Shown here: positions 37,545 through 57,828 of the stretch, in pieces | How the letters are laid out: each line of letters starts with the position of its first letter | How positions within the stretch are numbered: the stretch's first letter is position 1 | Virus record (IMG/VR): IMGVR_UViG_3300010398_001198 | Span: 32,001-96,000 of that record | Direction: 5' to 3' (one strand) | DNA from: a virus | DNA length: 64,000 nt | Notes under the pieces: model-generated | Told to the model about the DNA's origin: nothing | Database searches by the model: none | Seen by the model: the letters and a program-made list of their open reading frames with translations, nothing else | Made by a program: the position numbers and the translations under genes

Positions 37545-38072
37545 GTGATGCCACCTGATGAGTATTGTTGGCAGTACATGAGTGCCCTGCTGGGCGTGCT
37601 GGTGCTGCTCCTCATCGCCTGCCTCTTTGGCGCCTGTACTGCGGCGCAGCAAGGTCCGCCGATTCCTGACGTTCTGCCCCTCACGGCACCGGAGCCCGTG
37701 CCCGCCCCGGCTCTGCCTCTACCTCTGCCTGCCGCTGTCCCTGGCCCGGCTGTTGCGCCGCAGCAGTTCCGGGCCTGGGTCCCGCCGCAGACGACGGCAG
37801 CCGGTGACCGCATCGAGGGCCATTGGGCCGTGATTTCCCTGACCCCGCCTCCCGCAGAGACCTTGGAGCCTGCCAAGACGATCCCGCGTACGCCGCGCCA
37901 GGTCATCCCGGCGAAGGTGAGCACGGCACCGATTGCCCGGCCACAACCGGCGGATATGCCCACCCCCGTCCTGCCGGGACAGGCGCCACTGTTTGGCACG
38001 CCGCCGATGCTGGCCGTGCCCAGTGCTCCCACGCTGGCACCGCCCGTCCTGCTGCCTGGAGGGACGCCGTAA
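37545..38072 (+). CDS. traV: TraV-like lipoprotein
   Basis: Lipobox-like LFGAC; FRAWVPPQTTAAGDRIEGHW motif; Pro-rich. Confidence 0.7.
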   Translation: MMPPDEYCWQYMSALLGVLVLLLIACLFGACTAAQQGPPIPDVLPLTAPEPVPAPALPLPLPAAVPGPAVAPQQFRAWVPPQTTAAGDRIEGHWAVISLTPPPAETLEPAKTIPRTPRQVIPAKVSTAPIARPQPADMPTPVLPGQAPLFGTPPMLAVPSAPTLAPPVLLPGGTP

Positions 38073-40630
38073 TGGCACCGCCGTCGTTTGCCACCCTGTT
38101 GCCCCACTCGGTCCTTCTGGATCACGAGCAAGGGATTGTCCTGCTCATGACCTCGCCCAGTCGCTGGCAGGCCCCGCGGCTGGCCCTGGGGTGTGCGTGG
38201 GCCGTCGAGCCGCGCAATATCGAAGTGCTCGATGAGAGCGTCTGCACAGACATTGCGCGCATGCACGAAAGTCTCCTCAAGAGCTTGCCGCAGGGAGCTG
38301 CCCTGCAAACGATCATGACCATTCTGCCTGCCACGGAGGCGCCGGCCTGGACGGCCTTGCGGCCAACGACGACCGATGCTCCCGCGCAGGCTTTGCTGCT
38401 CCAGGAGCAACAGATGGCCCTGGCGGACGGGTTGCCGCACCGCGACGGCACCACATTGGGGCGGTTGCGCACGGTGCAGACCCTGGTGACCGTGCGTGTC
38501 CCCCTGCAGGGACTCCTACCCACGGTGACGCGCCTGGTGCGGAGTGTGCTCGCCTTGCCGCAGCACCATCGGCGTTCCTTAGGGCAGCGCCTGGCTGCGG
38601 AGTTGGAGGAGACGTTGGCGCATCTCGGGTCCTTGCGGCACGGCATTACGGAAACGTTGCGCAGCGTCGGGCATCGCGTCGAGGCGCTCGACGGGACAGC
38701 GCTGGGGCAGGCCCTGGCGCGTGCACTCGATCCCTCTGCATCCGGTGTGCCGGCGATTGACGCGACCAGTCCCCTCGGGGAGCAGGTCCTGCAACGGCCC
38801 CTCACCCAAGTCCCCGGTGGCTTTGGCTATGTCGATGCCACTGGCACGCTGACCGAGGTGGCGCAGATGCTCTCCCTGCATCATGCCCCGCCGCAGACCT
38901 ATCCGGGCATCCTGTGTGCGCCCCGGGCGCCCGCCAGTACGAAACCGTTGGCCCTCTGGCAGGCCTGGGCGGGGCCGCTGACGCTGGTGGTCAATGTGGC
39001 CGCCGTCGATAGCCAGGCCGAGAAAAGCCGCTTGCAATGGAAGGCCCGCCTGGCAAGCTGGCACGGCAAAGAGCAGGAGAGCGACAGCAGCGATGCGGAG
39101 AACGTGACCCTGAAAAAAGAACTCCAGACGCTCTTGCAGACGCTCTTTGTGACCGGTGGGCAGATCTATTGGGGCCGCGTGCATGTGGTGCTCTGGGGCG
39201 AGCCACGCGCCGTCAAGCGTGGCCTCGACGAGGTCCAACGGTTGGGGCGGAGCCTGGACCTGGAATTTGCCCCGGAGCCTGGCGCCCTGGGGTCCACCCT
39301 CTGGTTGCAGACGCTGCCCCTCGGCTTTGACCCGGCCTATCCCGCAGAGAAGATCCTGCAACGTGCCCGGCGTATTCCGGGGGACATTCTCTCGGACCTG
39401 CTGACCCTCTACGGCGGCTGTCGCGGCACGGCCACGCCCGGGCTGCTCTATCTCAATCAGCGCGGCGAGACCGCCACCTGGCACCCCTTTGACTCGGCGA
39501 CGAACCCGCACCTCATTATTACCGGGACGTCCGGCGCGGGCAAAACCTTTACCGTGGCGCACCTGGTCAATCAGTTAATGCCCCTCGGGGCGACGATGGT
39601 CCTTGTGGATCCGCTCACCAATTACCGGCAGCTCTGTGAGCTCTGGCAGGGGGACTATGTGGCCTTGGGCTTTGAGCGCCCGCCCTGCATCAATCCCTTT
39701 GCGGGGCCGCTCGACAGCCAGCATGTCTCCTTTCTCACGGCCATCCTGGCGCAGATGGCCGGGGGCGGCGGCGATCGGCTGACCTGGGAAGAGTTTAATG
39801 TGCTGGGGAACGCCGTGGGCTATTTTGCGCAGCACTGGGACACGCAGCGCGGCGAGCCCACGCTGGGCGTGTTTCATCAGGAAGTGTTGCAGGAGGGGAT
39901 CTTTGAAGAGAAAGATCGGCGCTCGCGCATGCTGGGGCGCCAACTGGCCCGCAAGCTCGGGCTCTTTGTCGGCAACGGCCCCTATGTCCCCTTTCTCAAT
40001 GGTCCCAACACGTTTCGCGTTCGCCCAGGCTTGACGCTCCTGGAGTTGAATCAATTGGAGAAAGCGAAGGACCTGCAAGCCATTCTGTTCTTTGCGCAGG
40101 TGCACTTTTACACGACCTTTTTCCGCGACCCGCAGCACTTCTATACCCCCAAATACATCCTGTTTGACGAGGTGTGGGCGTTTGACAAGTTTCCGCAAAC
40201 GGCGGATGAGGTCGATAAGATCGTCCGCACCTACCGCAACTTTCATACCTGTGCCGGCTTTCTCTCGCAGGATGTCAAAACATGGGATACCCCGATGGGG
40301 CAGGTGATTCGGTCGATTGCCGGGCTGCGGCTCTTTCTCCAGCAAGCCGGGGGCGAGCTCCCGAAACTCAAGGACCTCTTTGACTTGACCGACGCCGAGA
40401 TGCAGGTCTTTCGGCAGGTGAAACGGCATGCTGACTGGTCGAGTGGCTACCTCCAGGTGGACGGCGGCCACGGCGGCGTCCTCCGCCTGATTCCGGATCT
40501 GTATACCAAACTCCTCATGGCGCAAGACAGTGCGCTGGCCCAGCGGCGCCGGGCACTCCTCGCGGAGACCGGTGGCGATCTGGCCCGCACGATGCGCACC
40601 TTGCTCCAGGAGGCGCGGGCGCATGCGTGA
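38072..40630 (+). CDS. traC: TraC/VirB4 ATPase
   Basis: Walker A GTSGAGKT, Walker B ILFDEVW, RTYRN..CAGFLSQ; start at 38072 coupled to traV. Confidence 0.92.
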   Translation: MAPPSFATLLPHSVLLDHEQGIVLLMTSPSRWQAPRLALGCAWAVEPRNIEVLDESVCTDIARMHESLLKSLPQGAALQTIMTILPATEAPAWTALRPTTTDAPAQALLLQEQQMALADGLPHRDGTTLGRLRTVQTLVTVRVPLQGLLPTVTRLVRSVLALPQHHRRSLGQRLAAELEETLAHLGSLRHGITETLRSVGHRVEALDGTALGQALARALDPSASGVPAIDATSPLGEQVLQRPLTQVPGGFGYVDATGTLTEVAQMLSLHHAPPQTYPGILCAPRAPASTKPLALWQAWAGPLTLVVNVAAVDSQAEKSRLQWKARLASWHGKEQESDSSDAENVTLKKELQTLLQTLFVTGGQIYWGRVHVVLWGEPRAVKRGLDEVQRLGRSLDLEFAPEPGALGSTLWLQTLPLGFDPAYPAEKILQRARRIPGDILSDLLTLYGGCRGTATPGLLYLNQRGETATWHPFDSATNPHLIITGTSGAGKTFTVAHLVNQLMPLGATMVLVDPLTNYRQLCELWQGDYVALGFERPPCINPFAGPLDSQHVSFLTAILAQMAGGGGDRLTWEEFNVLGNAVGYFAQHWDTQRGEPTLGVFHQEVLQEGIFEEKDRRSRMLGRQLARKLGLFVGNGPYVPFLNGPNTFRVRPGLTLLELNQLEKAKDLQAILFFAQVHFYTTFFRDPQHFYTPKYILFDEVWAFDKFPQTADEVDKIVRTYRNFHTCAGFLSQDVKTWDTPMGQVIRSIAGLRLFLQQAGGELPKLKDLFDLTDAEMQVFRQVKRHADWSSGYLQVDGGHGGVLRLIPDLYTKLLMAQDSALAQRRRALLAETGGDLARTMRTLLQEARAHA

Positions 40631-41093
40631 TCCCAAGCCCGTGCTCCTCCTGCTGTGCCTGCAAGGGTTGGGCCTCATGCTCCTCGCCGGCTGGTGGGCA
40701 ATGCAGCCGGCAGACGAGCGGGTCGGGCGCCTCGTCACCCTGGCGGTGCAGGAACAGGCACCGCTGCCGCCGCCACGGGATCTCCTGGGGCAAGCCCAGT
40801 GGCTGCGCCTGCATCGGCAGCAAACGGGGCAGGGCCTGCTCGGGCTCCTCGCCGTGGGCTTCGTCATCGGGATCGGGGAAGGGCTGGCGACCCGCGCAAC
40901 GGACCGCCTGGCGGGCTTTCGGCTTCAGCGCTGGACGTGTGGCGTGGTGGGCGTGGCGCTGGTGCCGGGACTGGTGGCGGCCTATCTCGTCCTGCCCTGG
41001 CCCCTGCCACTGCGGCTGGTGGGCGGCGCGGGCTGTGGTCTGCTGGCCGTCATGGGCTGGTGTCTGTGTGCAGGGAAACCGTATATTGCCTAA
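40623..41093 (+). CDS. Conjugation-associated membrane protein (DUF4400-like)
   Basis: Four hydrophobic segments; VIGIGEGL..R pattern. Confidence 0.55.
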   Translation: MRDPKPVLLLLCLQGLGLMLLAGWWAMQPADERVGRLVTLAVQEQAPLPPPRDLLGQAQWLRLHRQQTGQGLLGLLAVGFVIGIGEGLATRATDRLAGFRLQRWTCGVVGVALVPGLVAAYLVLPWPLPLRLVGGAGCGLLAVMGWCLCAGKPYIA

Positions 41094-41097
41094 ATGA

Positions 41098-41126
41098 TTG
41101 AATTTACTATGAATTATGGGTATAAT
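41098..41126 (+). promoter_or_regulatory. Strong internal sigma70 promoter ahead of the HNH gene
   Basis: TTGAAT-N17-TATAAT. Confidence 0.75.
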
Positions 41127-41207
41127 AAGGCAAGAAATGCAACGCCTTGCGACGATGTGTGGTGCATCGCCACAAGGCTCCACCCTTATATCTGGTTAGG
41201 AGATATC

Positions 41208-42389
41208 ATGGGTAGTATCCAAATCATTGCCTCTCGTTGTGCCCTCTGTCAAGACGATCCACGCTCCTTTCGTTCATATGCTTCTGTCATTGATATCAGT
41301 GGACAGACCTTTCATCGGCTGACGGTCGAGCATTTTGTCGGTATCGGACGTGCGCGACTAGCCTTCTGGTGTTGCCGGTGCGCCTGTGGTCAGGGGGCTA
41401 TTGTGAGCGGCAACGCGCTGCGCCATGATTCCACGAAATCCTGTGGTTGCCTTGTCCATGAGACGGTCAATGCCGGGCAGTTTCAGCCGACGCATGGGAT
41501 GACCAACACACCACTCTTTCGGACGTGGTGCAACATGCTGACCCGCTGTCTGAATGCCCATTCTCCTGATTATGAGCGCTACGGCGCTCGCGGTATCACC
41601 GTGTGCCCTCAGTGGCAGGCCTCGTTTGAAACGTTTCTGGCAGATGTCGGAGAGCGTCCAGCAGGGATGACCCTGGATCGTATTGACGTCAATCGTCCCT
41701 ATGAGCCGGGCAATGTGCTCTGGAGTTCTCCACGGGAGCAAAGCAATAACAAACGGAACAATCATTTCTTGACCTTTCAAGGACGATGCCTTTCGTTGGC
41801 GCAATGGGCGATAGAGCGTGACATTCCCTATGCAGCCTTATGTAGTCGCGTGAGGGCGGGCTGGGCTGTCGAGAAAATCTTGACGACACCTGTTCGGATA
41901 CGCCAACGCTCGCTTCCCTCTGCCGAGTCAGCACAACCAAGAAAGGGCTGGGGCAAATACAGCCATGGCATGAGTAAGACGCGCCTGCATCGGATTTGGC
42001 GGGGGATTCTCAATCGGTGTCTCAATACGCGCACGCCAGCCTTTCCCGACTATGGCGGGAGAGGCATCATGATCTGTGAGCGGTGGCGGCAATCCTTTCT
42101 GGCTTTTTATGAGGACGTGGGCGATGCGCCAGATGGCATGAGCTTGGAGCGTCTTGATAACGCTGGCCATTATGAGCCTGGCAATGTGCGGTGGGCTTCC
42201 CCGTTAGAACAAGCCAACAACAAACGGAACACGCGCCTGCTTCGCTATGCGGGAAAAGCACAATCTGTCGCTGCGTGGGCGCGTGAACAAGGATTACCAC
42301 TGGCGACTGTTTGGGGCCGCTTGCGATTGGGGTGGTCTGTCGCGGATACCTTATCAATCCCTGCCAAACGACAGCAAGGAGTGCTCTGA
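41208..42389 (+). CDS. Double-domain HNH homing endonuclease
   Basis: CRCACG...TKSCGC; two copies of HGM..T.L..W..M..RC.N.....Y..YG.RGI..C..W..SF..F..DVG..P.GM.L.R.D....YEPGNV.W....EQ.NNKRN. Confidence 0.9.
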   Translation: MGSIQIIASRCALCQDDPRSFRSYASVIDISGQTFHRLTVEHFVGIGRARLAFWCCRCACGQGAIVSGNALRHDSTKSCGCLVHETVNAGQFQPTHGMTNTPLFRTWCNMLTRCLNAHSPDYERYGARGITVCPQWQASFETFLADVGERPAGMTLDRIDVNRPYEPGNVLWSSPREQSNNKRNNHFLTFQGRCLSLAQWAIERDIPYAALCSRVRAGWAVEKILTTPVRIRQRSLPSAESAQPRKGWGKYSHGMSKTRLHRIWRGILNRCLNTRTPAFPDYGGRGIMICERWRQSFLAFYEDVGDAPDGMSLERLDNAGHYEPGNVRWASPLEQANNKRNTRLLRYAGKAQSVAAWAREQGLPLATVWGRLRLGWSVADTLSIPAKRQQGVL

Positions 42390-43660
42390 TGATTACAGCT
42401 CTTGTGCGACGTCTCCTTTTCCCGAGCATATTTTGTATGCTCCTCCCGTCTCTGGTCTCTGCTGATCTATGGGATGATGCTCGAAAGGCGACAAGAGCAG
42501 ATATCGCTTTTCAAGATGCCGCAGGAAATACCATCCGAGGGACCGTGAATTTCCAGAGCGGTCAAAGCCAAGCCAATGTCACATTATTTCGGGGCAATGC
42601 GCAAGTGGGTGGTCCCTGTGGCAGCTTCAATCTCGGCGCTTCCCTGAAAGACGCGTTTGAGACCATCCCCGATCTTCTCCAAACAGCAGGCGAGGCAGTC
42701 TTACAGGAATTGCCACTATTAGTATTATGTTATTCTGCACCTAGCGTCTGTGATATTTTCAAGCATTACTCCTCGCTCATCTCGGCGCTGGTGCAGGCGC
42801 GCTATGCCTCCTGCCAGCAGATCCAGACGGCGATGAGTTACGGTGGCATGCGGTTGCGGGGGGGCGCGGTCAGTCAGTGCTTGGAGGAACAGGCGAACAC
42901 GGGCGCGACCCTCAACCAGGCGATGGCGACCTGCAACGGGCGCGTCGATGCGCTGCGCCGGCCTGATGGGACCACTGGCATTGAAGCGAATCTCATCAAA
43001 GACACCCTGGCTGCAGCCGGCGCCAGTACGGAATCCCAGACCCTGGCCCATAGCCTCCTGGGGGAAGTGACGTTGCGCGCCGGCGGCAACCAGCTCACGG
43101 CGCAGTCCGAACGGCCTCAGGCCGCGCTCCTGGCCCAGTATGCGGAACGGCGGGTGGCGGCCGAGCAGCGCTTGCGGGATGCGGTGCAAGAGTACCGCGA
43201 CACCGGCACGCTCTCGCCGGCCACGCAGCAGGGGCTCTCCGTGCCTGGCCAACCGCTGCCACGCGTCGTCCTGGATGCCCTGGTGACGCTGGACAGTGAT
43301 CCGGTGCGTCGGGATGTGTACGTGGGCAAGCTGGCGACTGGGGTCGCCCTGACGCAACTCGTCTGGGACTGCCACCAGCTCAGTGATGAACTCCAGGCGG
43401 CGATTCAGGCCAACAACCATCTCACGGATGAGGCGCGGCGACTGCTCGAAGCCAAGCATACCGCGCTGCGGCAGAACCTGGCGGAAGTTTTGCAGAAGGT
43501 CGAAGTGATGGAAAAACAATATCAGCCGGCGATTGACACCCTCCTGCGGGAGTACACCGCCGTGCAGCAACAGGCCACCAGTGTGGGGTTGCGGGCACCC
43601 GCCGTGACGGTGCCGAGTATGCCCTACCGGACCCAGACACCCATGGGCTACGGACGCTAG
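42389..43660 (+). CDS. TraH/PFL_4711-like conjugal transfer protein
   Basis: Signal peptide; GPCGSFNLGASLK motif; helical/coiled-coil C-terminus; upstream of the traG-like gene. Confidence 0.6.
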   Translation: MITALVRRLLFPSIFCMLLPSLVSADLWDDARKATRADIAFQDAAGNTIRGTVNFQSGQSQANVTLFRGNAQVGGPCGSFNLGASLKDAFETIPDLLQTAGEAVLQELPLLVLCYSAPSVCDIFKHYSSLISALVQARYASCQQIQTAMSYGGMRLRGGAVSQCLEEQANTGATLNQAMATCNGRVDALRRPDGTTGIEANLIKDTLAAAGASTESQTLAHSLLGEVTLRAGGNQLTAQSERPQAALLAQYAERRVAAEQRLRDAVQEYRDTGTLSPATQQGLSVPGQPLPRVVLDALVTLDSDPVRRDVYVGKLATGVALTQLVWDCHQLSDELQAAIQANNHLTDEARRLLEAKHTALRQNLAEVLQKVEVMEKQYQPAIDTLLREYTAVQQQATSVGLRAPAVTVPSMPYRTQTPMGYGR

Positions 43661-43713
43661 GAGGGGTTATCGACTTCCTCTTTCTCTCATTACCCGAAGC
43701 CCTCTACGGCTAC

Positions 43714-45147
43714 ATGGGATTATCAATCCAGGCCCTCATCCGGGGCTCCGCCTTGCGCCAGCTGCCCCGCGTGATTGTGCTGGGCTGGTCTCTGGCCCTC
43801 CTCGCACGCGTCATGTTTCGTGGGGGCAGTCTGCGCCCGCTGGTGACCTACTTTGTCAGCAGCCTCCTCATCGGGATCCTCTTCTGGCCCGAAGCGGTCA
43901 TCTTTGGCCGGCGCACCGCCTTTGTCACGGATGCGACCCGCGTGACCTCCTATGTGGCCAGTCAGGACCCCGGCGCCGAGGTGGTGACCGCGGCGGATAC
44001 GCAGCAGGTGCCGCCCTTCCTGCAACCGCCGAGTCTGATTGCGCCGGGCTTTGGCATCCTCCTGCGCGCCTGGACGAACTTCTCGCTGGCCATCGCCCGT
44101 GCCATCAACAGCGAGACGCATCAACCCTTCCACAGTCTCCTGCCCATGCAGTGGCTGCTCGGGGTGTCGCTCACGACGGACATCACCAACGGCATTGCCG
44201 ACTGGGTGCACAACTGCTACCTGCCGGTGCAGACGATGACGTTGGAAGCGCAGCAGGGGCGGACGGTGGATGACCTGCTCCCCTGGGGCGACACGCCCTT
44301 ACGCCAGGGCTTAGCGACCCGCAGTGTCATTCCCGGCGCGCAGACGGGCATCACCTTCATGCAGAGCACGGCGGCCAGTCGTGAGGTGGCCTGTGATGTC
44401 TACCTCGACGCGCTCGAAAGTGACACACAAGCGTGGCTGTTCCAACTGCGGACGCCGCGCAATACGCCGCTGCTCCAGGTCTTTCAAGAGGACCTCGGCA
44501 TGGAGCCCCAGACACAGGCGCGCTTTATCCTGTACCGGGAAATGCTGCGGGCCTCGCAGGGAGGTGGCGTGCCGGCGCCGAGCCTGACCGGGACGTATGC
44601 CGCGCTGCGCGGCCTCGCGGTGGGCGGGCAAGCCGTGAGCGGGGCTGCGACGGGCTGGCTCTCCGGCATTGGGGCGCTGATTGGCACAGCCACAGGCACG
44701 GTGCGCGGGCTTGGCACCGAGTTCCAGGCGGTCATGAGTGGGCTGTCCTGGCTTATCCGGGCGGCGATTCTCCTGGTGTGGTTTGCGCCCTATGTGGTGG
44801 GGATCGTCACCATGGTGCACATCGCGCTCTTCCCCATCGTGCTCCTCTGGGTCTTCCTCAGCCCCGGCTCGCAACTCGTCATCCTGGCGCAGTACTTTGT
44901 CGCGCTGCTCTTTACCTCGTCGATTCCCCTCTGGTGGGCACTCGTGGACCAGGTGACGAAACTGGCGGCCAGCGCGGTGCCCAGTGCGGGCAGTGGGTAT
45001 GATGCCGCCATCCTGGGCTTCCTGACCTCTGGGCTGTGGGTAGCGACCCTGACGGCTGTGGGTATTCTGCTCATCCCGGTCATCACGTGGAGCATCTATT
45101 TTAAGACGTTTCGCTATATCAATGGACTGGCGCGTGTCGGCGCCTAG
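43714..45147 (+). CDS. TraG-N/VirB6-like polytopic membrane protein
   Basis: Several TM segments; VHNCYLP...CDVY motifs. The only good RBS (GGAGG at 43660) suggests the start may be ~15 codons earlier at a non-ATG codon. Confidence 0.65.
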   Translation: MGLSIQALIRGSALRQLPRVIVLGWSLALLARVMFRGGSLRPLVTYFVSSLLIGILFWPEAVIFGRRTAFVTDATRVTSYVASQDPGAEVVTAADTQQVPPFLQPPSLIAPGFGILLRAWTNFSLAIARAINSETHQPFHSLLPMQWLLGVSLTTDITNGIADWVHNCYLPVQTMTLEAQQGRTVDDLLPWGDTPLRQGLATRSVIPGAQTGITFMQSTAASREVACDVYLDALESDTQAWLFQLRTPRNTPLLQVFQEDLGMEPQTQARFILYREMLRASQGGGVPAPSLTGTYAALRGLAVGGQAVSGAATGWLSGIGALIGTATGTVRGLGTEFQAVMSGLSWLIRAAILLVWFAPYVVGIVTMVHIALFPIVLLWVFLSPGSQLVILAQYFVALLFTSSIPLWWALVDQVTKLAASAVPSAGSGYDAAILGFLTSGLWVATLTAVGILLIPVITWSIYFKTFRYINGLARVGA

Positions 45148-45155
45148 GACAGGGA

Positions 45156-45276
45156 GTTTTAAGTTGGAAGTTTTAAGTTTTAAGGGGGAAAGGTTCAGAA
45201 GATGGTACGCGACTACATCAGTCTCCGACCGTAACCCTTCAAACTTCACCCTTAACCCTCTTCTCCGAAGGAGAAG
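45156..45276 (+). promoter_or_regulatory. Heptad-array element, copy C
   Basis: GTTTTAA GTTGGAA GTTTTAA GTTTTAA, 44-nt core (GGGGGAAAG..GAAGATGGTACGCGACTACATCAGTCTCCG), ACCGTAA CCCTTCA AACTTCA CCCTTAA, CCCTCTTCTCCGAAGGAGA-GCCCATG; closely matches copy A. Confidence 0.9.
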
Positions 45277-45279
45277 CCC

Positions 45280-45642
45280 ATGTCTGCTCCACTGCTCGTG
45301 ATCAGTCGGCCCATCTACTACCCCCGCCATACCCTGGAGCCCTTGCCGGGGACACCCTGGCTGCGGCCGGCCTCGCTCCTGCGTCGGGCGCTCCCCCTGC
45401 TGCTCAGTGCGGTGGCGCTCCTTGGGGTGACGGCGGCGGCGAAACAGGCCCCGGCGCTGCTGGCCGTTACGGTCATTGTCGGCATCGTGGGCGTGGTGAT
45501 CATTGGTGGAGGCCTGGCGACGATCAACCAGGTGCAGGTGTGTCCACACTGTCTGGGCGGCATGGGCCTCGGGGCCAGCCGCTGTGGGCAGTGTGGGTTC
45601 CGCGCGTCAGCGAACCCCACACGAAGGAAGGTTGATGAGTAA
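45280..45642 (+). CDS. Membrane protein with a C-terminal zinc ribbon
   Basis: Two TM segments, CPHC...CGQCG. Confidence 0.7.
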   Translation: MSAPLLVISRPIYYPRHTLEPLPGTPWLRPASLLRRALPLLLSAVALLGVTAAAKQAPALLAVTVIVGIVGVVIIGGGLATINQVQVCPHCLGGMGLGASRCGQCGFRASANPTRRKVDE

Positions 45643-45865
45643 ACGGCTCTCGATCCATGAGGATGTCTACGACCGTCTGACGCAGCTCGCAGCCCGCTAT
45701 AACTGTTCGGTCACGCGACTGCTCGTCGAACTGGCGGACCTCGGGGAACTCCTGAGCGAGGCCAGTCGCCTGGAATTTCACCTGCCCGAGCAGACCGGGG
45801 GCACCATGCGGGTCTGGCTCCCCGGCACCGGACTCCTCTGGCCGCATCTCGAGCCCCTGCCATGA
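45635..45865 (+). CDS. Ribbon-helix-helix (CopG/Arc-like) DNA-binding protein
   Basis: MSKRLSIHEDVYDRLTQLAARYNCSVTRLLVEL. Confidence 0.65.
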   Translation: MSKRLSIHEDVYDRLTQLAARYNCSVTRLLVELADLGELLSEASRLEFHLPEQTGGTMRVWLPGTGLLWPHLEPLP

Positions 45866-47121
45866 GAATGCTGCTGGTAGGGCTGCTGCTCAGCCTCGCG
45901 ATGCGGGTGCAGGCCGGGGAGGTGACGCTGGCCTTTGAGTATGAGCTCGACTTGCAATCCTCGGTCTCGTTTACCTTGCATGTGGTGGGCGCCCATGGGG
46001 GGCAGGCTGCCGCCCAGGATCTGCCGGTGGCGCTGTTGCCTCGGTGTCCGACGACGGCCACGTTTACCCCGCTCGTCGAGACCGTCTGTGTGCAGCTCTG
46101 CCTGGAGCCGGATGACTATAGTCTCACGGCGCAGGCGCATCGGGGCGTCGAAGCGAGCCCGTTCTCCAACATCCTGGACGTGGACCTGCGCGTGACCACG
46201 CCCTGTACCCTGCCGCTGCCTCCACCCCCGCCGGACAAGAAGCGCCATGCCTTTCCCATTCCGCCGCCCCCTCTTCCCATCCCCGTCGCGACGGATACGG
46301 TACTGGCCGATCTCCCCAATCCAGGATGCGTGACGTGGAAGATCACGGGTGCCTGCTTCTGCAATCCGTTCACCCCCTGCGTGTCGGTCTCCTATTATGA
46401 GCCGGCCTATCTCGTCGAGGTGGTGAAGCAGCCCGGCACCACGCTGCTCACACTGGGGCAACCGCTGCTCGCGGCGGCGCTGAAGGCCGCCGGACTCAGT
46501 CTGTGGGGTGGGGGTGGCGCAGCCAATGCGACCGGCGACGGGCAGACGAATAAACATTATGCCGAGGCGCACGTGTGGCAATTTCCGCAGCTCCTCGGCG
46601 GCCCCTGCACGGGCTGTGCGCCGAGTGGGACGTTCACGCTGCACTACGCCAGCGAGCTCGATCTGCCCACCTGGCGCACCGCCACGGCGGCTCCCACGCC
46701 GCTCGACCTGGTGCAGCAGATTGGTGTCTGGGCGCGGCTCTATCCGCGTGGCGGCACGGTCATCCATTCCAGCGAAGTCATCGCCAGTGCGGTCACGGCG
46801 ATCCGGGCCATGGACATTACCCGGCAGCCCATTGGCACCCCGCCCAACGTCGATGTCCATCGCATTCTGCAACCGATCCCGGACGATCATACCTGTGCCC
46901 AGATGGCGCTGCCCAAGCGTCTGCCCTGCATGACGCCGGGCACACCTCCGCCCCTGTGGGAAACCGGGACGACCTCGAAACAGGGAAACTATTTACTGGT
47001 CTTTTGGCGTCAACGTACGTGCTGCGTCGAACCTGCACGCGCCACCTGCGGCATCACCGTGCCGGGTGTGGGTGGCCAAGGAGCCAATCTATGTCTGTTA
47101 CCACCCTTGCCTACGCCGTAG
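45862..47121 (+). CDS. traU: TraU/PFL_4710-like protein with an N-terminal FN3-like domain
   Basis: CVTWKITGAC...VSYYEP..LVEVV...HYASELD..WR...GVWARLYPRGG...SAVTAIRA; Cys-rich. Confidence 0.85.
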   Translation: MRMLLVGLLLSLAMRVQAGEVTLAFEYELDLQSSVSFTLHVVGAHGGQAAAQDLPVALLPRCPTTATFTPLVETVCVQLCLEPDDYSLTAQAHRGVEASPFSNILDVDLRVTTPCTLPLPPPPPDKKRHAFPIPPPPLPIPVATDTVLADLPNPGCVTWKITGACFCNPFTPCVSVSYYEPAYLVEVVKQPGTTLLTLGQPLLAAALKAAGLSLWGGGGAANATGDGQTNKHYAEAHVWQFPQLLGGPCTGCAPSGTFTLHYASELDLPTWRTATAAPTPLDLVQQIGVWARLYPRGGTVIHSSEVIASAVTAIRAMDITRQPIGTPPNVDVHRILQPIPDDHTCAQMALPKRLPCMTPGTPPPLWETGTTSKQGNYLLVFWRQRTCCVEPARATCGITVPGVGGQGANLCLLPPLPTP

Positions 47122-48116: not shown

Positions 48117-49967
48117 ATGCCTCTCAGTGCGAAATTCCCTGCCCTTGAGACCACGTTGACTGCGCTCGCGGGTGGGCTGTGTCTGGCGAGTGGCTTCGGG
48201 CCTCCAGTCCTCCTGCCTGCTGCAGTCCAGCCCCTGGCGCTGGCGGCAGCGGGGGCCTGGGGTCTGCGGCGCACGCTCGCCCTCGATCACGCCCTCGCCC
48301 GCTGGTGGCGCTGGCATCATGGCCCCTCATGGCGCGTCACCGTCGATGTCCTGTCCCACGTCGAGGGCTGCCTCCTCGGCAAAGCCTTTCGGCTGGAAGC
48401 CCGCCACACGCAACTCCTTGAGGATATTCTGCGCACCGATGGCGCCCTGCCGCTCGACCGTGGCCCCCGCGGGGGCTATCCCCTGCTGCATGCCGTCGGG
48501 GAGGCAGAGGAAGTAGACCAGGTGCTCTCCGATGCCGAACTGGGGCGCCACACGCTGATCACGGGCACGCCAGGGAGTGGCAAAACCCGCGCCCTCGCCA
48601 TGATTGCCTCGTCGCTCATGCAACGGCCGGGAGCGGTGGTCATGATCGATCCCAAAGGCGACCGCGAGCTCATGCTGCACTGTGCGGCGGAAGCCAAGCG
48701 CCACGGCAAACCCTGGGCCGTGCTTACCCCGGCCTTTCCGCAGCTCTCGGCCACCATGAACGTCCTGGATACCTGTCGTACCCCCGCCGAAGTGGCCATG
48801 CGCGTGCATGCCCTGATGCCGAGTGCCGGCGGCCGCAGCAATGAGCCGTTCTTTGAACAGTATGCCCTGGCGTTGATCGAACGCATTGCCGATATCCAGC
48901 AACGCTTGGGGCAGCAGCATGGGCATCCGGTCGGGAATCCCTGGACGCTTGCGGACCTCTATCGCCCTGCAGTGCTCCGGCTGGATCTGCTCATGCTCGT
49001 TGATACCTATCTCGAGGCCATCGGTATCCCCAACACCCCGTTCAAGGGACGGAAGGGGAGCCGCTTCGACCATCGCTTTGCCCATTACCGGGCCACAGGA
49101 TTGCGGGACATGACGATCGATGCGCTCCTGGATGACCTGGAGAAACCGCGGGACCATTTCACCAAAGTAACGGCGACCCTGATTCCTACCTTTAGGGGCG
49201 TGGTGGGGGAACCGCTGGAACGCCTGCTCTCCACGGTGCCGGCCGACCTCACCTGGACGCGCATCGCGGAGGACGGGATGGTGGTGTATGTGGCGCTGGC
49301 TTCGATGCTGTTAGGGGATGATGCCAACCGCATTGGCCGCGTCATCCTGCAAGACCTCATCGGCTTTCTCGGCCAACGGTATGCGTACGCAGATGCGGCA
49401 CAGGCTTCGCCCATTACCGTGCTCGTGGACGAGCTCTATGAGGTGCTCTATCCGCAGTTTACGACCGCCCTGGCCATGTCCCGTGGCGCCCGGTGTCGGT
49501 GGATTCTGGCGCAGCAGTCCCTCGCCCATACGGCGGCGAAACTTGGACGCGATACCGCCCGCGTGCTGCTCGATAACTGTACGACGCGCCTCTATTTCCA
49601 ACTCGCCGACAAGGAGACTGCCGAAGATGTCTCGGAGAGCTTGGGGACCTGTACGATTGACGTGCCGGCGCGGCGGCCTGACGTGACCAATGCCTACGGC
49701 GGGAGTGGCGGATTGGCCGGTGCGGCCCGCAAGGGCTTCAAGGCAGAACGGGTGCCACTCATCCGGCCCGAGTGGCTCTATGCGCTCCCCATTGGGGAGT
49801 ATGTGGGCCGGATTCAAGGGGTGCCCGTCAAAGGGCGCATCCCGTTGCTCACCCTGCCGGATGAGGCAGCACGGACCCAGTTGGGCTTGCACGATCCCTG
49901 GCAGGCCCTCAACCCGGCAGCCCCACGGCTGCTGCCAATGCCAACGACAGAGGAGATCGCACCATGA
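48117..49967 (+). CDS. traD: Type IV coupling protein TraD/VirD4
   Basis: N-terminal TMs, RHTLITGTPGSGKT, MIDPKGD, VLVDE..E, SRGA....LAQQS. Confidence 0.92.
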   Translation: MPLSAKFPALETTLTALAGGLCLASGFGPPVLLPAAVQPLALAAAGAWGLRRTLALDHALARWWRWHHGPSWRVTVDVLSHVEGCLLGKAFRLEARHTQLLEDILRTDGALPLDRGPRGGYPLLHAVGEAEEVDQVLSDAELGRHTLITGTPGSGKTRALAMIASSLMQRPGAVVMIDPKGDRELMLHCAAEAKRHGKPWAVLTPAFPQLSATMNVLDTCRTPAEVAMRVHALMPSAGGRSNEPFFEQYALALIERIADIQQRLGQQHGHPVGNPWTLADLYRPAVLRLDLLMLVDTYLEAIGIPNTPFKGRKGSRFDHRFAHYRATGLRDMTIDALLDDLEKPRDHFTKVTATLIPTFRGVVGEPLERLLSTVPADLTWTRIAEDGMVVYVALASMLLGDDANRIGRVILQDLIGFLGQRYAYADAAQASPITVLVDELYEVLYPQFTTALAMSRGARCRWILAQQSLAHTAAKLGRDTARVLLDNCTTRLYFQLADKETAEDVSESLGTCTIDVPARRPDVTNAYGGSGGLAGAARKGFKAERVPLIRPEWLYALPIGEYVGRIQGVPVKGRIPLLTLPDEAARTQLGLHDPWQALNPAAPRLLPMPTTEEIAP

Positions 49968-50344
49968 GACGACTACTCATCCTGGGCCTGAGTGTGGCCC
50001 TCACGGGCTGTGTCGCCACAGGCACGAAAGTCAGCCAGGACCGGCTGACCCACTTTGCCGAAGGGCAGACGCTCTGTACCGACATGGTGGCCGAGCTCGG
50101 GCCACCGACGCAGGAGACCCTGCGCAGTGACAAGACCCGCCAACTCACCTATAGCTACAGTCAGATGCAGGTGAATCCCCTGTCCTTTATCCCGGTGGCC
50201 GGCGCGTTTATCCGGAGCGGGAGCCAGGAGAACACGGCGGTGCTGATCGAATGTGATGCGCGGGGGGTGCTGGTCACCTACGAGTTGCAGCAGGGGCAGA
50301 GCACGACCGGGACCGGGTTCGTGAGTGGGGGGCGGCAAAAGTAG
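49964..50344 (+). CDS. SmpA/OmlA-like lipoprotein (possible entry exclusion)
   Basis: Lipobox LTGC; ELGPP..T...YSY. Confidence 0.7.
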   Translation: MRRLLILGLSVALTGCVATGTKVSQDRLTHFAEGQTLCTDMVAELGPPTQETLRSDKTRQLTYSYSQMQVNPLSFIPVAGAFIRSGSQENTAVLIECDARGVLVTYELQQGQSTTGTGFVSGGRQK

Positions 50345-50463
50345 CCGCCCGCTGGGTAGTGACGGCGGAGCGAGCGGACGCGGCTTTCGCCCTTGCCTCA
50401 CAGGGGGTTCGAGGGCGGGTGTCGCGGCCTGGCGCAAGTGACAGACCGGAAGCGAGGTGGGGA

Positions 50464-51375
50464 ATGCCGACCTTAGAGGGGCAGTTGGATGCGCTCACGC
50501 GGCGCAACCGGGATGGCTCGCACAAGACGCAGGGGGATCGGCGGCGTATGTTGCATTTGTTTGCGCGGCAACTGCATGAGTTAGGGTATCGGCAGTTGCG
50601 GGCGCAGGATCTGAAGGGGCGGCATCGGAACAAGTTGCTGGCATTGTGGGAGACGCAAGGGATTACGGCGAAGGTGCGAGCGAATCGCATGGCGGTGCTG
50701 AACTGGTGGTATGAGAAGATTGGGAAGCCGGAGCTGATGGCGCGGCGCAATGCGGCGTATGGGATCGCACGGCCAGAGCCGGTCGTCGTCTCGCGGGCGA
50801 AGGTGCTCAGTGCGGCGCAGCTCCTGCAGGTCGAGGATGCGTATGTGCAGATGAGTTTACGGCTGATCCAGGCCTTTGGGCTGCGGCGCAAGGAGAGTCT
50901 GATGCTGTGTCCCCATGCGGCAGATGGGGGCGCAGTCCTGCATATCATGTTCAATTGGGCGAAGAATGGGCGGGCGCGGCAGATACCGATCGTGCAGCCG
51001 GGCCAGCGAGAGGTCTTAGAGGTGGCCAAGGCGCTGGTCCGAGAGCCGGCCGCATCACTCGTGCCGGTGGACCGGACCTTCATCGAGCAAGAGAAGCGGT
51101 TTGATGCATGGGTACACAAGATTGGATTGGGCGGTGCGCATGGGTTGCGGCATGCCTGGGCACAGGCGCGCTATGGGGTCCTCAGTGGGATGGCCTGTCC
51201 CTTGCTGGGGGGACCGTTGTGGTCCGCGATGACCCGTGACGAGCGCCAGCAGGATCGCCAGGCGCGGCAGGAGTTGACACGGGAATTGGGGCATGAGCGC
51301 GTGAGTCAAGTGGCCACCTATATCGGCACGAATCGGCCTGTACGTCCTCGCAGCGTCTCACCATCAAGTGATTAG
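50464..51375 (+). CDS. Tyrosine recombinase (Integrase_1/Phage_int_SAM_2 type)
   Basis: GSHKTQ..R..L; catalytic set FGLRRKE, WAKNGR, HGLRH, LGHER, TYIG all intact. Confidence 0.9.
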   Translation: MPTLEGQLDALTRRNRDGSHKTQGDRRRMLHLFARQLHELGYRQLRAQDLKGRHRNKLLALWETQGITAKVRANRMAVLNWWYEKIGKPELMARRNAAYGIARPEPVVVSRAKVLSAAQLLQVEDAYVQMSLRLIQAFGLRRKESLMLCPHAADGGAVLHIMFNWAKNGRARQIPIVQPGQREVLEVAKALVREPAASLVPVDRTFIEQEKRFDAWVHKIGLGGAHGLRHAWAQARYGVLSGMACPLLGGPLWSAMTRDERQQDRQARQELTRELGHERVSQVATYIGTNRPVRPRSVSPSSD

Positions 51376-51511
51376 AGTCAGTGGGGCATGCATCTGGGTT
51401 CCTCCAGGGCATGGGAGTATCTCCGGACTCCCCCCATGAGACGCGATGCTGTCACCGTAGTAAGCAGCACCAGACGACCGAATCTATAGAAACAGCACAG
51501 TCAAAGAGCGG

Positions 51512-51543
51512 CCTGAGACGAGGTGCTGTTCACCCGTCTCAGG
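51512..51543. repeat. Perfect 9-bp inverted repeat in the non-coding gap
   Basis: CCTGAGACG-N14-CGTCTCAGG. Confidence 0.7.
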
Positions 51544-52145
51544 GTCCATCGGGACTTAGGGTGTCAGCGCAGGGCCGGCACCGTAGAGCTGGGACAGGAG
51601 CGCCTTGAACTGCGGCCAGGAGCCGAGTCCAGGCGGCGGAGGTGCAGGAGGCACCGCCATGGGGGGAGCGGCTGTGGGCGACGGCGAGCGGCGGGGGCTC
51701 CAGGACCGCGGAGCGAGACGCCAGCCAGCGGGCCGGACACAGCGAGAATGGGGCTCACCATAGAACACGGGCGATGTCTCGAACATACGCAACCTCCTTG
51801 GGCTGGTGCGCGGGCGGCAGACGACTGGCTGTGTGGTCATTGCGAGCCGCGCCTGGCGGGTGCATAACCCAACCAGACGCAGCACAGGCAAGACGACCTG
51901 AGCCACGCAACGTCGTATCGCAGCGCATCAGCAGGGAAAAGGGCTGTGACGGGGGTAGAGAGGGTGTCACAGCAGGAGCCCAACGGTGTGGGCAGGCGTA
52001 CCAGGAGTGGTACGGAGGACCGGCCCAAAGAGCCGGGGTGCTAGGCGCATGCCTAACAGATACGCACAGTGTAGCCTGGGCAGGCGAGGGAACGCAAGCA
52101 AAATGTTCCCCCTGGAGACCGGCACGAGGGGGCCGCAGCGGGCGC

Positions 52146-53174
52146 TTACTTGCCGACGATGGCCTGATGGCTCTCTTCCGCGATCTTGATGAGCGCCACG
52201 CGCAAGGCGGCCTCATAGTCCCCGCCGGCGAGCCGCGTCTGTTGATAGGTCAGCAGGAACATGGCGAGGTGGTCGCGATAGCGGTCGGGCAGGTAGGGCA
52301 GGACGGTGCCCTGTTGCAGGGCGGTGACGGCCTGCCGAATGTCCGGTTCTGGAGCAAGGGGGGCATCTGCCTGGACGGGCCAGAGCAGCGTCAGGAGGCA
52401 GAGCCCGGTGAGGACAGGACGTAGAGCGGCGAATCGTACGAGAGTCGTGATCATAGGTGCTTTCCTTGCATGGTGGAAGAGAAGGCCCCGCTAGGGGGCC
52501 TCGTGCAGCGCCTCACGGTCGGCCTGGCGCTGCGTCAGCACGCGGTGCAGGTCGTCCACCGTGGTGGAGGGCATGACCCAGAGCACCTCAGCGGCAACGT
52601 GCAGCTCGATACTGCGGCGGACGGCCTTGGCCACGCGGACGGCCTCGGCGAAGACGGCCTCGAGGGGCGCGTCGGGGTGGGCCTTCAGGAGCAGAAAGGT
52701 CGGGTGCGTCATGGGGTCTCCTTCTTTGGTCGCTGTCTTTGCCATATCCACCCTCCGTGCTCAGACTCAGGTTCGATGGTCGTGACGAGGGCGAGCGCAT
52801 CCTCAAAGAGACGGTCAAAGAACGCCCTGGGTTGTCCCGACGCCCCTGGATAGAGGGCAACATAGCGTTTGGCAATGTCGAGCAATGCCTCAGCGGCCTG
52901 GGCGAGCCGTGCGTCACGGTTGTCTGGGGTCATCGTCGGTCTCCTTTCTGCCCGTGCGGGCGGGCGTGGTCTTGCGCCAGAGCGTCCGCCAGGGCGTCAG
53001 CATGGCATCCGAGGGCAGCAGCGTCACGGTGCCATCGTCGTGTTCCTCGACCAGGTACTCATCATAGCCCTTGCCATAGTCGCGGCGATGGCGCTCGTAG
53101 GGAATGGGGGCGTAGCCGTCGAGATGGCGGCGGGGCCAGCGTCCGTAGGGACTGTTGGGGATCGTGAGGCTCAT
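52146..53174 (-). CDS. Four small coupled hypothetical genes (52146-52454, 52491-52751, 52709-52933, 52914-53174)
   Basis: RBS-preceded, overlapping ORFs on the minus strand. Confidence 0.55.
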
Positions 53175-53985: not shown

Positions 53986-54561
53986 CTACGGCCTGGGCGG
54001 TTCTGCCGCCAGCGCCTTATAGATCGTCCTTCGCGAACACCCCAGCGTCTGGGCAATCGCCGTGATCTTCTCTCCCCCGCGTCGGAGCGCCTGCGCCTGC
54101 CGTTGTTTGTCCGGCGACAGCACCGGACGCCGTCCGCCCTTATGCCCCCGTGCCCGCGCCGCTTCAAGCCCGGCAATGACGCGCTCGCGGATCATCTCCC
54201 GTTCGAACTCGGCAAAGGCACCAAGCAGATCGAAGAACAGTTTGCCTGCCGTGCTCTGGAGGTCGAGGGCGGCGCCCAGGCCGTCCAGGATGTGCAGCCC
54301 AATCGCCTCAGTGCGGAAGTGGGCGGCGAGCTCTTGCAGATGGAGCAGGGACCGGGCCAGGCGGTCCAGCTTCCAGACGACGAGCGTATCGCCGCTGCGC
54401 AGCACCTGCAAACACTGCGCCAGCCCCGGACGTGCGGTGCGGGCACCGGAGGCTTTGTCGCCGTAGAGGTAGCGTTCGGGGACGCCAGCGGCCAGCAGGG
54501 CATCCCGTTGGAGGTCATACTTCTGGTCACGCGTCGAGACCCGCCAATAGCCGATAAGCAT
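53986..54561 (-). CDS. Serine resolvase/invertase with C-terminal HTH
   Basis: IGYWRVSTRDQ..DLQRDAL...DKASG..RPGL...GDTLVVWKLDRLARS...FEREMIRER...GGRRP...IAQTLGCSRRTIY. Confidence 0.95.
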   Translation of the reverse strand: MLIGYWRVSTRDQKYDLQRDALLAAGVPERYLYGDKASGARTARPGLAQCLQVLRSGDTLVVWKLDRLARSLLHLQELAAHFRTEAIGLHILDGLGAALDLQSTAGKLFFDLLGAFAEFEREMIRERVIAGLEAARARGHKGGRRPVLSPDKQRQAQALRRGGEKITAIAQTLGCSRRTIYKALAAEPPRP

Positions 54562-54984: not shown

Positions 54985-55497
54985 TCATCCCATCCCCTCG
55001 AGTCGCCCCGCCTTGAGGTCCTCCCGCAAGGCCATCCAGAGCTTGCCGAGCAGGTTCTGGCCATCATGGTTCGGTCCCCATCCCCAGGTCGCGTCTCGCC
55101 AGGAGTCCTCGACGATCTCGCGGTCCCCCGTCTCCAGCAGCTTCCGCCGCACGTACTCATGCTGTCGGAGCTTGGCGATCAGGATGGCCCGCATCACGGC
55201 CATCCGTCGCTCGTGCCAGGTCGAGGCGACGAGTCCTGCATGGTCCTGCGCCACGCGAAACGCCGCATGCGCCGAGCGGGCGACCCGGATCTGGCATTGC
55301 AGATCACAGGACGCACAATAGATATGGCAGGCATCATCCACGCCAGGATGGCGGAATTTTTCATAGTGATAGACATGCTCACTGGTATCAAAATCCAGCC
55401 CCCGCCAGTGCAGCCGAAAGGGCGCGAAGTTGGACAAACAGTAGAACTCGTCGGGGTAGAAATACACCCGGCTCTCGGTATCCAGTCGATAGGGCAT
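54985..55497 (-). CDS. NADAR (YbiA/DUF1768) family ADP-ribosyl/N-glycosidase
   Basis: FY..EFYCLSNF...F.TSEH.Y...KF...W...R..VM...L.AKL.QH....LL.TG.R.IVE.S..D..WG.G...G.N.LG..WM..RE. Confidence 0.92.
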   Translation of the reverse strand: MPYRLDTESRVYFYPDEFYCLSNFAPFRLHWRGLDFDTSEHVYHYEKFRHPGVDDACHIYCASCDLQCQIRVARSAHAAFRVAQDHAGLVASTWHERRMAVMRAILIAKLRQHEYVRRKLLETGDREIVEDSWRDATWGWGPNHDGQNLLGKLWMALREDLKAGRLEGMG

Positions 55498-56976: not shown

Positions 56977-57828
56977 TTATTCGATCTCTTCCACCGTGAG
57001 CATGTCGATGTTCAAGGCCCTTCGCAAGGCCCGTCCCGTCGCCCGCGTGGCCGCGATGCGAATGAAGTGTTGTTTCATGGGGGCTGCCTGGACATTGGCC
57101 GGCGTCGCATCCCCGATATCCGTAAAGCTCCGGCCATCGCCGAACCGCGCAACGCATTGGCACACGGCGACCTCTGGCGTCACTGTGACAATCGTAGTCG
57201 CCAGGTCGACCAGACCGCGCTCATGGGCCAACGCCACGAGACCGTTCACGTACACGTAGTACTTCCCCTGAATAAGCCGCACATACTGCTTGGGTACGTC
57301 GGCGAGCCGGAGCGGCGACGGGTCAGCGGCGGTCTCCTCTTCGGGAGGGCCGTCCTGCGCCGATGGTATCTCCGCGACGGGGGGGGCAGAGACCTCTACC
57401 CCCTGCTCCAGTCGCTCCAATTCCGCTGACAGATCCTTCGGGGGCATCTGCAACTGCTCCGGCGTGAGATGGGAGGCCCGGTGCGCCAGGACCACGGCAA
57501 TCCGGTGCTTGCACAACCCGAGAGGCGCCTGGTGCTGCTGAAAATCCTCACACTCACAGGTTTTCCCTTGAACTTGGTAGCACCCGCTGCCGGTCTCGGA
57601 TGCCACCTCATAGACGCCATCACCCTTGTAGACCACTTTGCTGCGATCGAGGGCGAGTGCCGTGGCCGGTGAGATGCGTGAGGTCAGCGCCTTGTCCGTA
57701 CTGCGGAGGGAGGCCACCGCCGAGGAAAGGCGCACAGCCTTCTTCCAGAGTGCGTCATCAAACGCGACGGTCCCCTGGCCTTCACGGGGAGCTTGGGTCG
57801 TGCCATTCGTCTGTGTTACACTTGCCAT
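56977..57828 (-). CDS. SWIM zinc finger fused to a Rad52/Sak-like annealing domain
   Basis: CECEDF...LCKHRIAV (SWIM); IQGKYYV...GL..LAH...IGDATP.NV....HFIRIAATRA.GRALR.ALNI...EE. Confidence 0.7.
   Translation of the reverse strand: MASVTQTNGTTQAPREGQGTVAFDDALWKKAVRLSSAVASLRSTDKALTSRISPATALALDRSKVVYKGDGVYEVASETGSGCYQVQGKTCECEDFQQHQAPLGLCKHRIAVVLAHRASHLTPEQLQMPPKDLSAELERLEQGVEVSAPPVAEIPSAQDGPPEEETAADPSPLRLADVPKQYVRLIQGKYYVYVNGLVALAHERGLVDLATTIVTVTPEVAVCQCVARFGDGRSFTDIGDATPANVQAAPMKQHFIRIAATRATGRALRRALNIDMLTVEEIE

Follow-up and report, generated by a model that had tools for sequence, protein, structure and literature searches.

A tyrosine recombinase-like gene of the MpsA family as the probable conjugative relaxase of a type IV secretion locus in a tailed-phage genome

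A divergent type IV secretion system (T4SS) cluster is encoded within a 64,000-nucleotide stretch of viral DNA, hereafter the window, which comprises bases 32001-96000 of the linear, 122,663-bp IMG/VR virus record IMGVR_UViG_3300010398_001198 (contig G000). The cluster ends in three genes, for a coupling protein, a lipoprotein and a protein with the fold of a tyrosine recombinase, and the last of these (50464-51375, plus strand) is probably the conjugative relaxase of the adjacent T4SS, of the MpsA / Integrase_1 (MOB_M) family. A first-pass annotation had noted the coupling protein, the lipoprotein, a recombinase with an intact R-K-HxxR-H-Y set and a non-coding gap after it, and had proposed that the recombinase occupies the place of a missing relaxase. 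Domain matches and alignment locate all four features where that annotation had put them, and its central idea, a tyrosine-recombinase-fold enzyme serving as T4SS relaxase, is supported by homology to PF12835 and MpsA and by genomic context. Judged by homology, the recombinase-like gene is a new member of the known MOB_M class, in an unusual carrier and phylum. The features of the locus, including two stretches that are candidate sites of the origin of transfer (oriT), are as follows.

37823..47121, plus strand: upstream T4SS core (TraC/VirB4, three conserved proteins of unknown family, TraU-like protein)
37823-40630, plus strand: TraC/VirB4, T4SS core
41094-45147, plus strand: three conserved proteins without a known family, T4SS core
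45862-47121, plus strand: TraU-like protein, T4SS core
48117..49967, plus strand: type IV coupling protein (TraD/VirD4 type, SXT-TraD-like), 616 aa; from Pfam, NCBIfam and hydropathy
49964..50344, plus strand: small lipoprotein, 126 aa; signal peptide and lipobox LTGC
50345..50463, no strand: intergenic stretch, 119 bp, GC-rich, upstream of the likely start codon; candidate oriT or promoter
50464..51375, plus strand: MpsA-family tyrosine-recombinase-like protein, candidate relaxase, 303 aa; Integrase_1 and Phage_int_SAM_2 domains
51376..51641, no strand: gap without a credible gene, lower GC; second candidate oriT or recombination site

The recombinase-like gene had been annotated as the longest open reading frame (ORF), 50359-51375 on the plus strand, which opens with GTG at 50359 and would encode 338 residues. 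The gene and its Integrase_1 type stand, but the start does not: the true start is probably ATG 50464, giving 303 rather than 338 residues, because a GAGGTG Shine-Dalgarno sequence lies a few bases upstream and because the Pfam match begins at that position, as do all homologues. A start at 50464 leaves the 119-bp spacer after the lipoprotein gene. The protein matches Phage_int_SAM_2 (PF12834; 5.5e-14, 52.9 bits against a cut-off of 22) and Integrase_1 (PF12835; 1.1e-6, 29.1 bits against a cut-off of 23, and 30.5 bits in a six-frame search), a two-domain architecture found in 1421 homologous clusters, and is not matched by Phage_integrase (PF00589) at E<=0.01. In the numbering of the 303-residue protein the catalytic residues are R141, K167, H226, R229, H277 and Y286, so that the R-K-HxxR(H)-H-Y set is intact, and all six positions are conserved throughout an alignment of 18 sequences (the window protein and 17 homologues, MpsA among them). 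The AlphaFold2 (AF2) model is confident (pLDDT 94.9) and shows the two domains of a classical recombinase; its best Foldseek matches are IntI, Tn1549 Int, lambda Int, XerH and Cre, whereas a sequence search against solved structures gave no meaningful match. In 102 of 114 homologues the protein ends two to three residues past the nucleophilic tyrosine, and the clade of the window protein has an extra 17-residue tail of Pro, Arg and Ser past it that is disordered in the model. Cre and XerD carry some 15-20 residues past the tyrosine, forming a helix that docks onto the neighbouring subunit. The lack of such a helix in the family would fit a nicking rather than a strand-exchanging enzyme; control integrases of integrative and conjugative elements (ICEs) also have short tails, with 7-11 residues past the tyrosine.

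No canonical relaxase was found to compete with this gene. The first-pass annotation had seen no such motif in the window and had proposed a whole-contig check, which was carried out as a six-frame hidden Markov model (HMM) search with seven Pfam profiles, PF07514 (MOBH), PF03432 (MOBP), PF08751 (MOBF), PF03389 (MOBQ), PF01076 (MOBV), PF02486 (MOBT) and PF13814 (MOBC-like); across the whole 122,663-bp contig, 77% complete by CheckV, it returned no match at E<=1. Because the contig is incomplete, a complete relative was also examined, namely IMGVR_UViG_3300026067_000001 (G001; 141,598 bp, 99-bp terminal repeat, CheckV 100%), the sole find of an alignment-based scan of viral contigs; a viral-contig scan with the single TraD protein as query found nothing. 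A six-frame search of G001 likewise gave no match at E<=1 for PF03389, PF01076, PF02486 and PF13814, and none at E<=0.01 for PF07514, PF03432 and PF08751. In the four Entotheonella/Tectimicrobiota genomes that carry this T4SS, MOBH and MOBF were not found and the single MOBP match lies about 400 kb away. It was also considered whether the Entotheonella ICEs hide a relaxase in the interval that separates traD from the PF12835 gene. This was rejected, since the interval encodes ArdC, a beta-clamp homologue and a group II intron reverse transcriptase, along with proteins whose family is unknown.

The closest experimentally studied relative is MpsA of Salmonella genomic island 1 (SGI1). A tblastn search against phage records led to a 3.1-kb Salmonella Kentucky fragment (L020) with a 321-aa ORF followed by a 99-aa ORF, and the former was identified as SGI1 MpsA because its R162, H247, R250, H251 and Y319 exactly match the published numbering (PMC6414798). 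It is also a PF12835 member (43.5 bits). Compared with the window protein it gives a BLASTP E value of 3e-15, with 29% identity over 176 columns (residues 167-323 of the 338-aa ORF), and the alignment covers the whole catalytic domain with every catalytic residue in register (R162, H247, R250, Y319). Among the traits of MOB_M proteins are detectable homology to an experimentally implicated member, a nucleophilic tyrosine together with the R-K-H-R-H residues, and association with a type IV coupling protein (T4CP) or mating-pair formation (MPF) genes in elements without another relaxase. The window protein has the first through MpsA, has the second in full, and shows the third on a contig that is 77% complete, with the complete G001 in agreement.

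The neighbouring genes are those of a DNA-transfer system. The coupling protein matches TrwB_AAD_bind (4.3e-18), TraG-D_C (1.3e-16) and T4SS-DNA_transf (6.6e-15) in Pfam; its top NCBIfam model is SXT_TraD, at 239 bits, under the model cut-off of 366. It has a Walker A motif (P-loop) and, by its hydropathy profile, N-terminal membrane segments at about residues 14-50, so that the domains, P-loop and N-terminal membrane anchor of type IV coupling proteins (VirD4/TraD/TrwB) are all found in 48117-49967. The rest of the cluster on G000 is of a divergent F/G-like kind, in which a weak TraL, TraC/VirB4, a TraU-like protein and TraD are recognisable and several proteins have no family. The start of the lipoprotein gene overlaps the traD stop by 4 nt, and the two are translationally coupled. 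Its product, with the N-terminus MRRLLILGLSVALTGC forming a signal peptide with the lipobox LTGC, has no family match in Pfam or NCBIfam; a 50%-identical homologue holds the same position in G001 (L005), and others occur at loci L055 and L067. At six loci (L045, L047, L049, L054, L056 and L075) the lipoprotein gene is missing, and traD is directly adjoined by the recombinase gene.

The association of the recombinase-like gene with this coupling protein recurs well beyond the window. About 76 homologues of the coupling protein are known, at ~40-66% identity, all from metagenomes or Tectimicrobiota metagenome-assembled genomes (MAGs), and among species-representative genomes the lineage occurs in four Candidatus Entotheonella/Tectimicrobiota assemblies. 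The survey that the first-pass annotation had suggested, of Integrase_1 genes near traD, was run in part: all six genomes or records with this coupling-protein lineage also have a PF12835 gene, and in nine of 13 informative metagenome loci (those that carry a close relative of the coupling protein and extend at least 1 kb downstream of it) that gene comes immediately after traD or after the lipoprotein gene, four times on the same strand at a distance of only 22-72 bp and five times convergently. In two complete chromosomes of 3.6-4.3 Mb (G003 and G004) the only PF12835 copy is on the same strand as traD and lies 11 and 26 kb downstream of it. Among 17 Tectimicrobiota genomes the coupling-protein lineage is found in four and PF12835 in five, with an overlap of four, for which a Fisher estimate gives p ~0.002, although the four carriers are related and so not independent. 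The phage relative G001 has the TraC...TraU...TraD-lipoprotein block of G000 together with a 45%-identical PF12835 gene, and beyond the T4SS block the two have little in common, so that the T4SS-plus-recombinase unit appears as a module carried by two different phages. The Entotheonella ICEs are ordered as integrase, T4SS with topoisomerase III, then traD and, after an interval, ArdC, a homologue of the beta-clamp, the PF12835 gene and ParA, with a canonical PF00589 integrase just outside the T4SS start, at the other end from the PF12835 gene. All five elements have in common only the PF12835 gene, the coupling protein and the genes of the T4SS core. As a conserved unit, T4SS, TraD and the PF12835 gene occur both in chromosomal ICEs of Candidatus Entotheonella and in the genomes of two tailed phages that are otherwise unrelated, and where this can be tested the PF12835 gene is not the integrase, as the Entotheonella ICEs retain it beside their own PF00589 integrase and typical leading-region genes.

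A few further observations concern these chromosomal relatives. In G003 a group II intron reverse transcriptase/maturase with an HNH domain lies between the ArdC and beta-clamp genes (L032:15532-17244). A third copy of the cassette, consisting of a 419-aa unknown protein, ArdC, beta-clamp and PF12835, is found at G002:C2:955000-974999 (L043); no T4SS gene occurs within this 20-kb stretch (~10 kb each side), which resembles a mobilisable island sharing the relaxase module. A homologue of the 419-aa protein, 44% identical, is encoded in the window at 56977-57828, minus strand.

Pairing with a coupling protein is also seen on small plasmids. Five of 13 sampled plasmids (L024, NZ_CP031990.1; L025, NZ_MN657117.1; L026, NC_006860.1 pSIO1; L028, NZ_CP133550.1; L030, NZ_OP378603.1) have a 37-42%-identical homologue followed by a coupling-protein gene of another lineage, whose product resembles that of the window at the level of the P-loop only. 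They comprise Acinetobacter, Psychrobacter and Vibrio plasmids of 5-15 kb and a Pleionea plasmid of 35 kb; a small ORF separates the two genes in four, and in Pleionea they are direct neighbours. The smallest (pSIO1 and pAhaem5227a) carry the PF12835 and coupling-protein genes, replication genes and almost nothing else, the Vibrio plasmid pSIO1 having only four genes in 4.9 kb. All five are typed 'non-mobilizable' by MOB-suite. A coupling protein is useful only with a relaxase. By their gene content, the plasmids with PF12835 and a coupling protein are probably unrecognised mobilisation modules of the MOB_M plus T4CP kind, and since the enzyme stands in an operon with a coupling protein on many small plasmids scored as 'non-mobilizable', these plasmids are probably mobilisable. 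A Cys-rich miniprotein of ~80 aa next to the pair is common to the Moraxellaceae and Pleionea plasmids.

If the gene product is the relaxase, a course of events can be outlined from its family. The two-domain enzyme, with its core-binding Phage_int_SAM_2 domain and its catalytic domain, would bind an oriT near its own gene; Tyr286, helped by the R-K-H-R-H residues, would cut one strand; the neighbouring TraD coupling protein would recognise the enzyme, and the DNA would be handed on to the TraC/TraU-type channel. Tyrosine recombinases become attached to the 3' phosphate. Polarity and strand displacement would for this reason differ from those of HUH relaxases, a polarity problem that stands for the whole class of recombinase-like relaxases (PMC8152469). 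The two non-coding stretches, 50345-50463 and 51376-51641, are candidate oriT locations. The upstream spacer contains an imperfect 18-nt inverted repeat (50376-50393 / 50412-50429), and the downstream gap a perfect 9-bp inverted repeat, CCTGAGACG/CGTCTCAGG, at 51512-51520 / 51535-51543, along with recurring TGAGACG / GCAGCAC words. No credible gene follows the recombinase stop over at least about 180-265 bp; the ORFs 51556-51906 (minus strand) and 51642-52424 (plus strand) have a low GC content at third codon positions (GC3) and no family match, and should the weak ORFs in that region not be genes, the gap may reach ~52145. Neither stretch contains terminator-like or promoter-like sites or an Rfam family, and the one terminator-like match of the scan, at 50541-50554, falls inside the recombinase gene.

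Several observations weigh against the assignment as relaxase. An oriT was not found by repeats, folding or conservation: the 119-bp spacer folds no better than shuffled sequence (z = 0.55), and no k-mer is common to the upstream and downstream regions of the window gene and those of four relatives. The orientation of the PF12835 gene relative to traD flips between loci whose proteins are 70-78% identical and whose flanks are collinear on both sides, which implies that the traD operon need not include the gene. On four of the 13 sampled plasmids the homologue occurs without any coupling protein or relaxase, and on two it adjoins a MOBQ relaxase gene. The fused core-binding domain and the full catalytic set are everything that a true recombinase needs, and as this is the sole tyrosine-recombinase-like gene on the complete G001, a role as integrase or resolvase, alone or in addition, is possible. 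The contig itself is only ~77% complete. MpsA is still called a 'suspected' relaxase, and SGI1 transfer falls by four logs without the helper MOBH TraI, no counterpart of which is present here (PMC13635750).

The flips invite a remark of their own. Roughly half of the relatives have the gene turned round with respect to traD. Inverted pairs are seen in L049 versus L056, in L045 versus L054 and in the window gene (50464-51375) versus that of G001 (L005:12032-12904), and the segment with the recombinase-like gene is more diverged (~70% DNA identity) than its flanks (80-89%). An invertible segment bounded by inverted repeats was considered and rejected, for no flanking repeat beat shuffled sequence in eight loci.

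The protein might be an ordinary site-specific recombinase, an integrase or a Cre-like multimer resolvase of a phage or phage-plasmid, that stands beside the T4SS at a module boundary. The complete two-domain fold, with IntI, Tn1549 Int, lambda Int, XerH and Cre as the nearest structures, and the intact catalytic set agree with this; the six-frame search of G000 and of the complete G001 with PF00589 found no integrase at E<=0.01, so that neither has another tyrosine recombinase, the gene is located at the edge of the block common to both, and the homologue on some small plasmids without any transfer genes looks resolvase-like. It is nonetheless a rather unlikely explanation, as the Entotheonella ICEs with the same T4SS keep the PF12835 gene despite a separate PF00589 integrase, a resolvase would have no reason to be paired directly, and repeatedly, with two unrelated lineages of coupling protein, and no repeated or inverted candidate sites flank the gene. 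In SGI1, moreover, which has its own int and xis, the family member MpsA is needed for mobilisation and not for integration (PMC13635750). A combination of both roles, in which the phage-borne module employs one MpsA-family enzyme as relaxase and as the only site-specific recombinase of the element (integrase or dimer resolvase), is unlikely. Were it true, a tailed phage genome would leave the cell either packaged or by conjugation with a single DNA-cleaving enzyme, and the repeated flipping of the gene beside traD would be a trace of recombinase activity.

Alternatively the real relaxase may lie elsewhere, in the ~23% of the genome that is missing or among the proteins of unknown family, with the recombinase-like protein accessory or unrelated. 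The CheckV estimate leaves room for this, most proteins of the T4SS region have no Pfam family and could include an unrecognised nuclease family, and SGI1 MpsAB performs far better with a MOBH TraI (PMC13635750); the complete G001, however, has none of the seven relaxase families, and the genes common to all five elements are limited to the T4SS core, the coupling protein and PF12835. This explanation is quite improbable. Still more so, and highly improbable overall, is a phage T4SS that moves no DNA, being used for protein secretion or pilus display or having decayed, in which case no relaxase would be needed and the neighbour would be coincidental. The system is indeed very divergent, with TraC, TraU, TraD and a weak TraL alone recognisable, and a T4SS within a tailed-phage genome is unusual, but the system has a conserved coupling protein with a TraG-D_C domain, and the chromosomal relatives carry ArdC, topoisomerase III, ParA and integrase, the usual equipment of conjugative elements.

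The carrier record is a genuine tailed-phage genome. It encodes a major head protein (phrog_1005, 5e-67), a tail sheath, a tail lysin, baseplate J and fibre proteins, a D5-type primase-helicase and a large terminase with a LAGLIDADG insert. The terminase subunit, at contig positions 119120-122137 (L004:16120-19137) and so outside the window, has 1005 residues with the LAGLIDADG_3 domain in the middle of the protein, which suggests an intein or a homing-endonuclease insertion. Within the window, 2.6-4 kb downstream of the recombinase-like gene, two minus-strand genes at 53986-54561 and 54985-55497 encode a small serine resolvase/invertase (Resolvase and HTH_7) and a NADAR-domain protein; the PF12835 gene of the Entotheonella locus L006 is likewise followed by a serine recombinase homologue.

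An element that has a full T4SS and a coupling protein but 'no relaxase' is generally taken to be defective. The reading of the recombinase-like gene as an MpsA-type relaxase, if true, gives this locus back a complete transfer apparatus and extends the MOB_M class to the Tectimicrobiota and to tailed-phage genomes. With its own T4SS, its own coupling protein and no MOBH helper, the system would be self-contained and a place to study the chemistry of recombinase-like relaxases, that is, 3'-linked cleavage, strand displacement and piloting.

Among known systems the mobilisation module of SGI1, made up of MpsA (S020), MpsB and oriT_SGI1 (PMC6414798, PMC9299015, PMC13635750), is the nearest. MpsA and the window protein belong to the same PF12835 family with 24-29% identity, have the HxxRH signature and carry the nucleophilic tyrosine near the C-terminus, and MpsA operates via a TraD of the SXT/IncC type, the type nearest to the coupling protein of the window. 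For SGI1 mobilisation the helper TraD is essential, whereas the MOBH TraI only enhances it (PMC6414798; PMC13635750). The two systems differ in that MpsA is without an N-terminal core-binding domain and needs the separate MpsB, whereas the window protein has PF12834 fused to it, and in that SGI1 has neither T4SS nor coupling protein of its own and profits from the helper MOBH TraI, whereas the window contains a self-contained T4SS locus and no MOBH gene. No homologue of MpsB or other accessory protein was found, the small neighbouring ORFs of the plasmids, G001 and SGI1 having no counterpart on the contig, and no Rfam match that would indicate an RNA like sgm-sRNA was found in 50200-52200. With the core-binding domain fused, no MpsB homologue and no Rfam match, the gene is a member of the family that does not share the architecture of the SGI1-type mobilisation module. 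A relative of MpsA with both domains fused occurs in an SGI1-like location in Salmonella houtenae, where an island of ~11 kb has inserted at the SGI1 site, the 3' end of trmE. One of its genes, for a 291-aa protein that matches PF12834 and PF12835 very strongly (L021:7953-8828), has D5-type primase-helicase genes directly after it.

The concept behind the first-pass annotation had already been published, since PF12835 serves as the relaxase-like signature 'INT_DTR_like' in the island classifier of the Burrus laboratory from 2023 (PMC10484663), and the MOB_M class was named in a 2026 preprint as the commonest relaxase in the chromosomes of six species, in 44% of cases with ICEs of the MPF_G type (bioRxiv 10.64898/2026.01.13.699239). 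A CONJscan profile for MOB_M, with a cut-off of 84, separates relaxases from recombinases (Dataset S2, 10.64898/2026.01.13.699239). As in the MOB_M/MPF_G ICEs, the window locus would have a recombinase-like protein as the cognate relaxase of a complete T4SS, of a kind usually annotated as integrase and missed by MOB typing tools, and a separate integrase accompanies the relaxase in those ICEs as it does in the Entotheonella elements. The published examples come from six well-studied proteobacterial species and almost only from chromosomes, whereas the window system has a Tectimicrobiota host lineage and a divergent F/G-like T4SS and is carried by a tailed phage without a PF00589 integrase.

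More distant parallels are found in other enzymes of the same fold. MobK of Klebsiella pIGRK is a recombinase-like Mob protein on a small plasmid typed as non-mobilisable, as are the PF12835 plasmids described above, and it nicks its oriT site-specifically in a Tyr- and Mg-dependent manner (PMC8152469); by the description in that paper it differs in having no core-binding domain and no significant sequence similarity to MpsA (PMC8152469). With Cre, XerC/D, XerH, IntI and lambda Int the window protein has the two-domain fold and catalytic residues in common, but it has no PF00589 match, and its genomic partners are coupling proteins and not paired recombination sites. TcpM of Clostridium perfringens pCW3, the comparator chosen in the first-pass annotation, embodies the same idea, a tyrosine-recombinase-like relaxase on a self-transmissible element without a canonical relaxase. 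Wisniewski et al. reportedly found in 2016 that single Tyr mutants of TcpM kept function. TcpM is nevertheless a distant analogue, part of a Firmicute FA-type system and reported to be without detectable sequence similarity to MpsA or MobK (PMC8152469), and MpsA, joined to the window protein through PF12835 and a direct match at E 3e-15, is the closer comparison.

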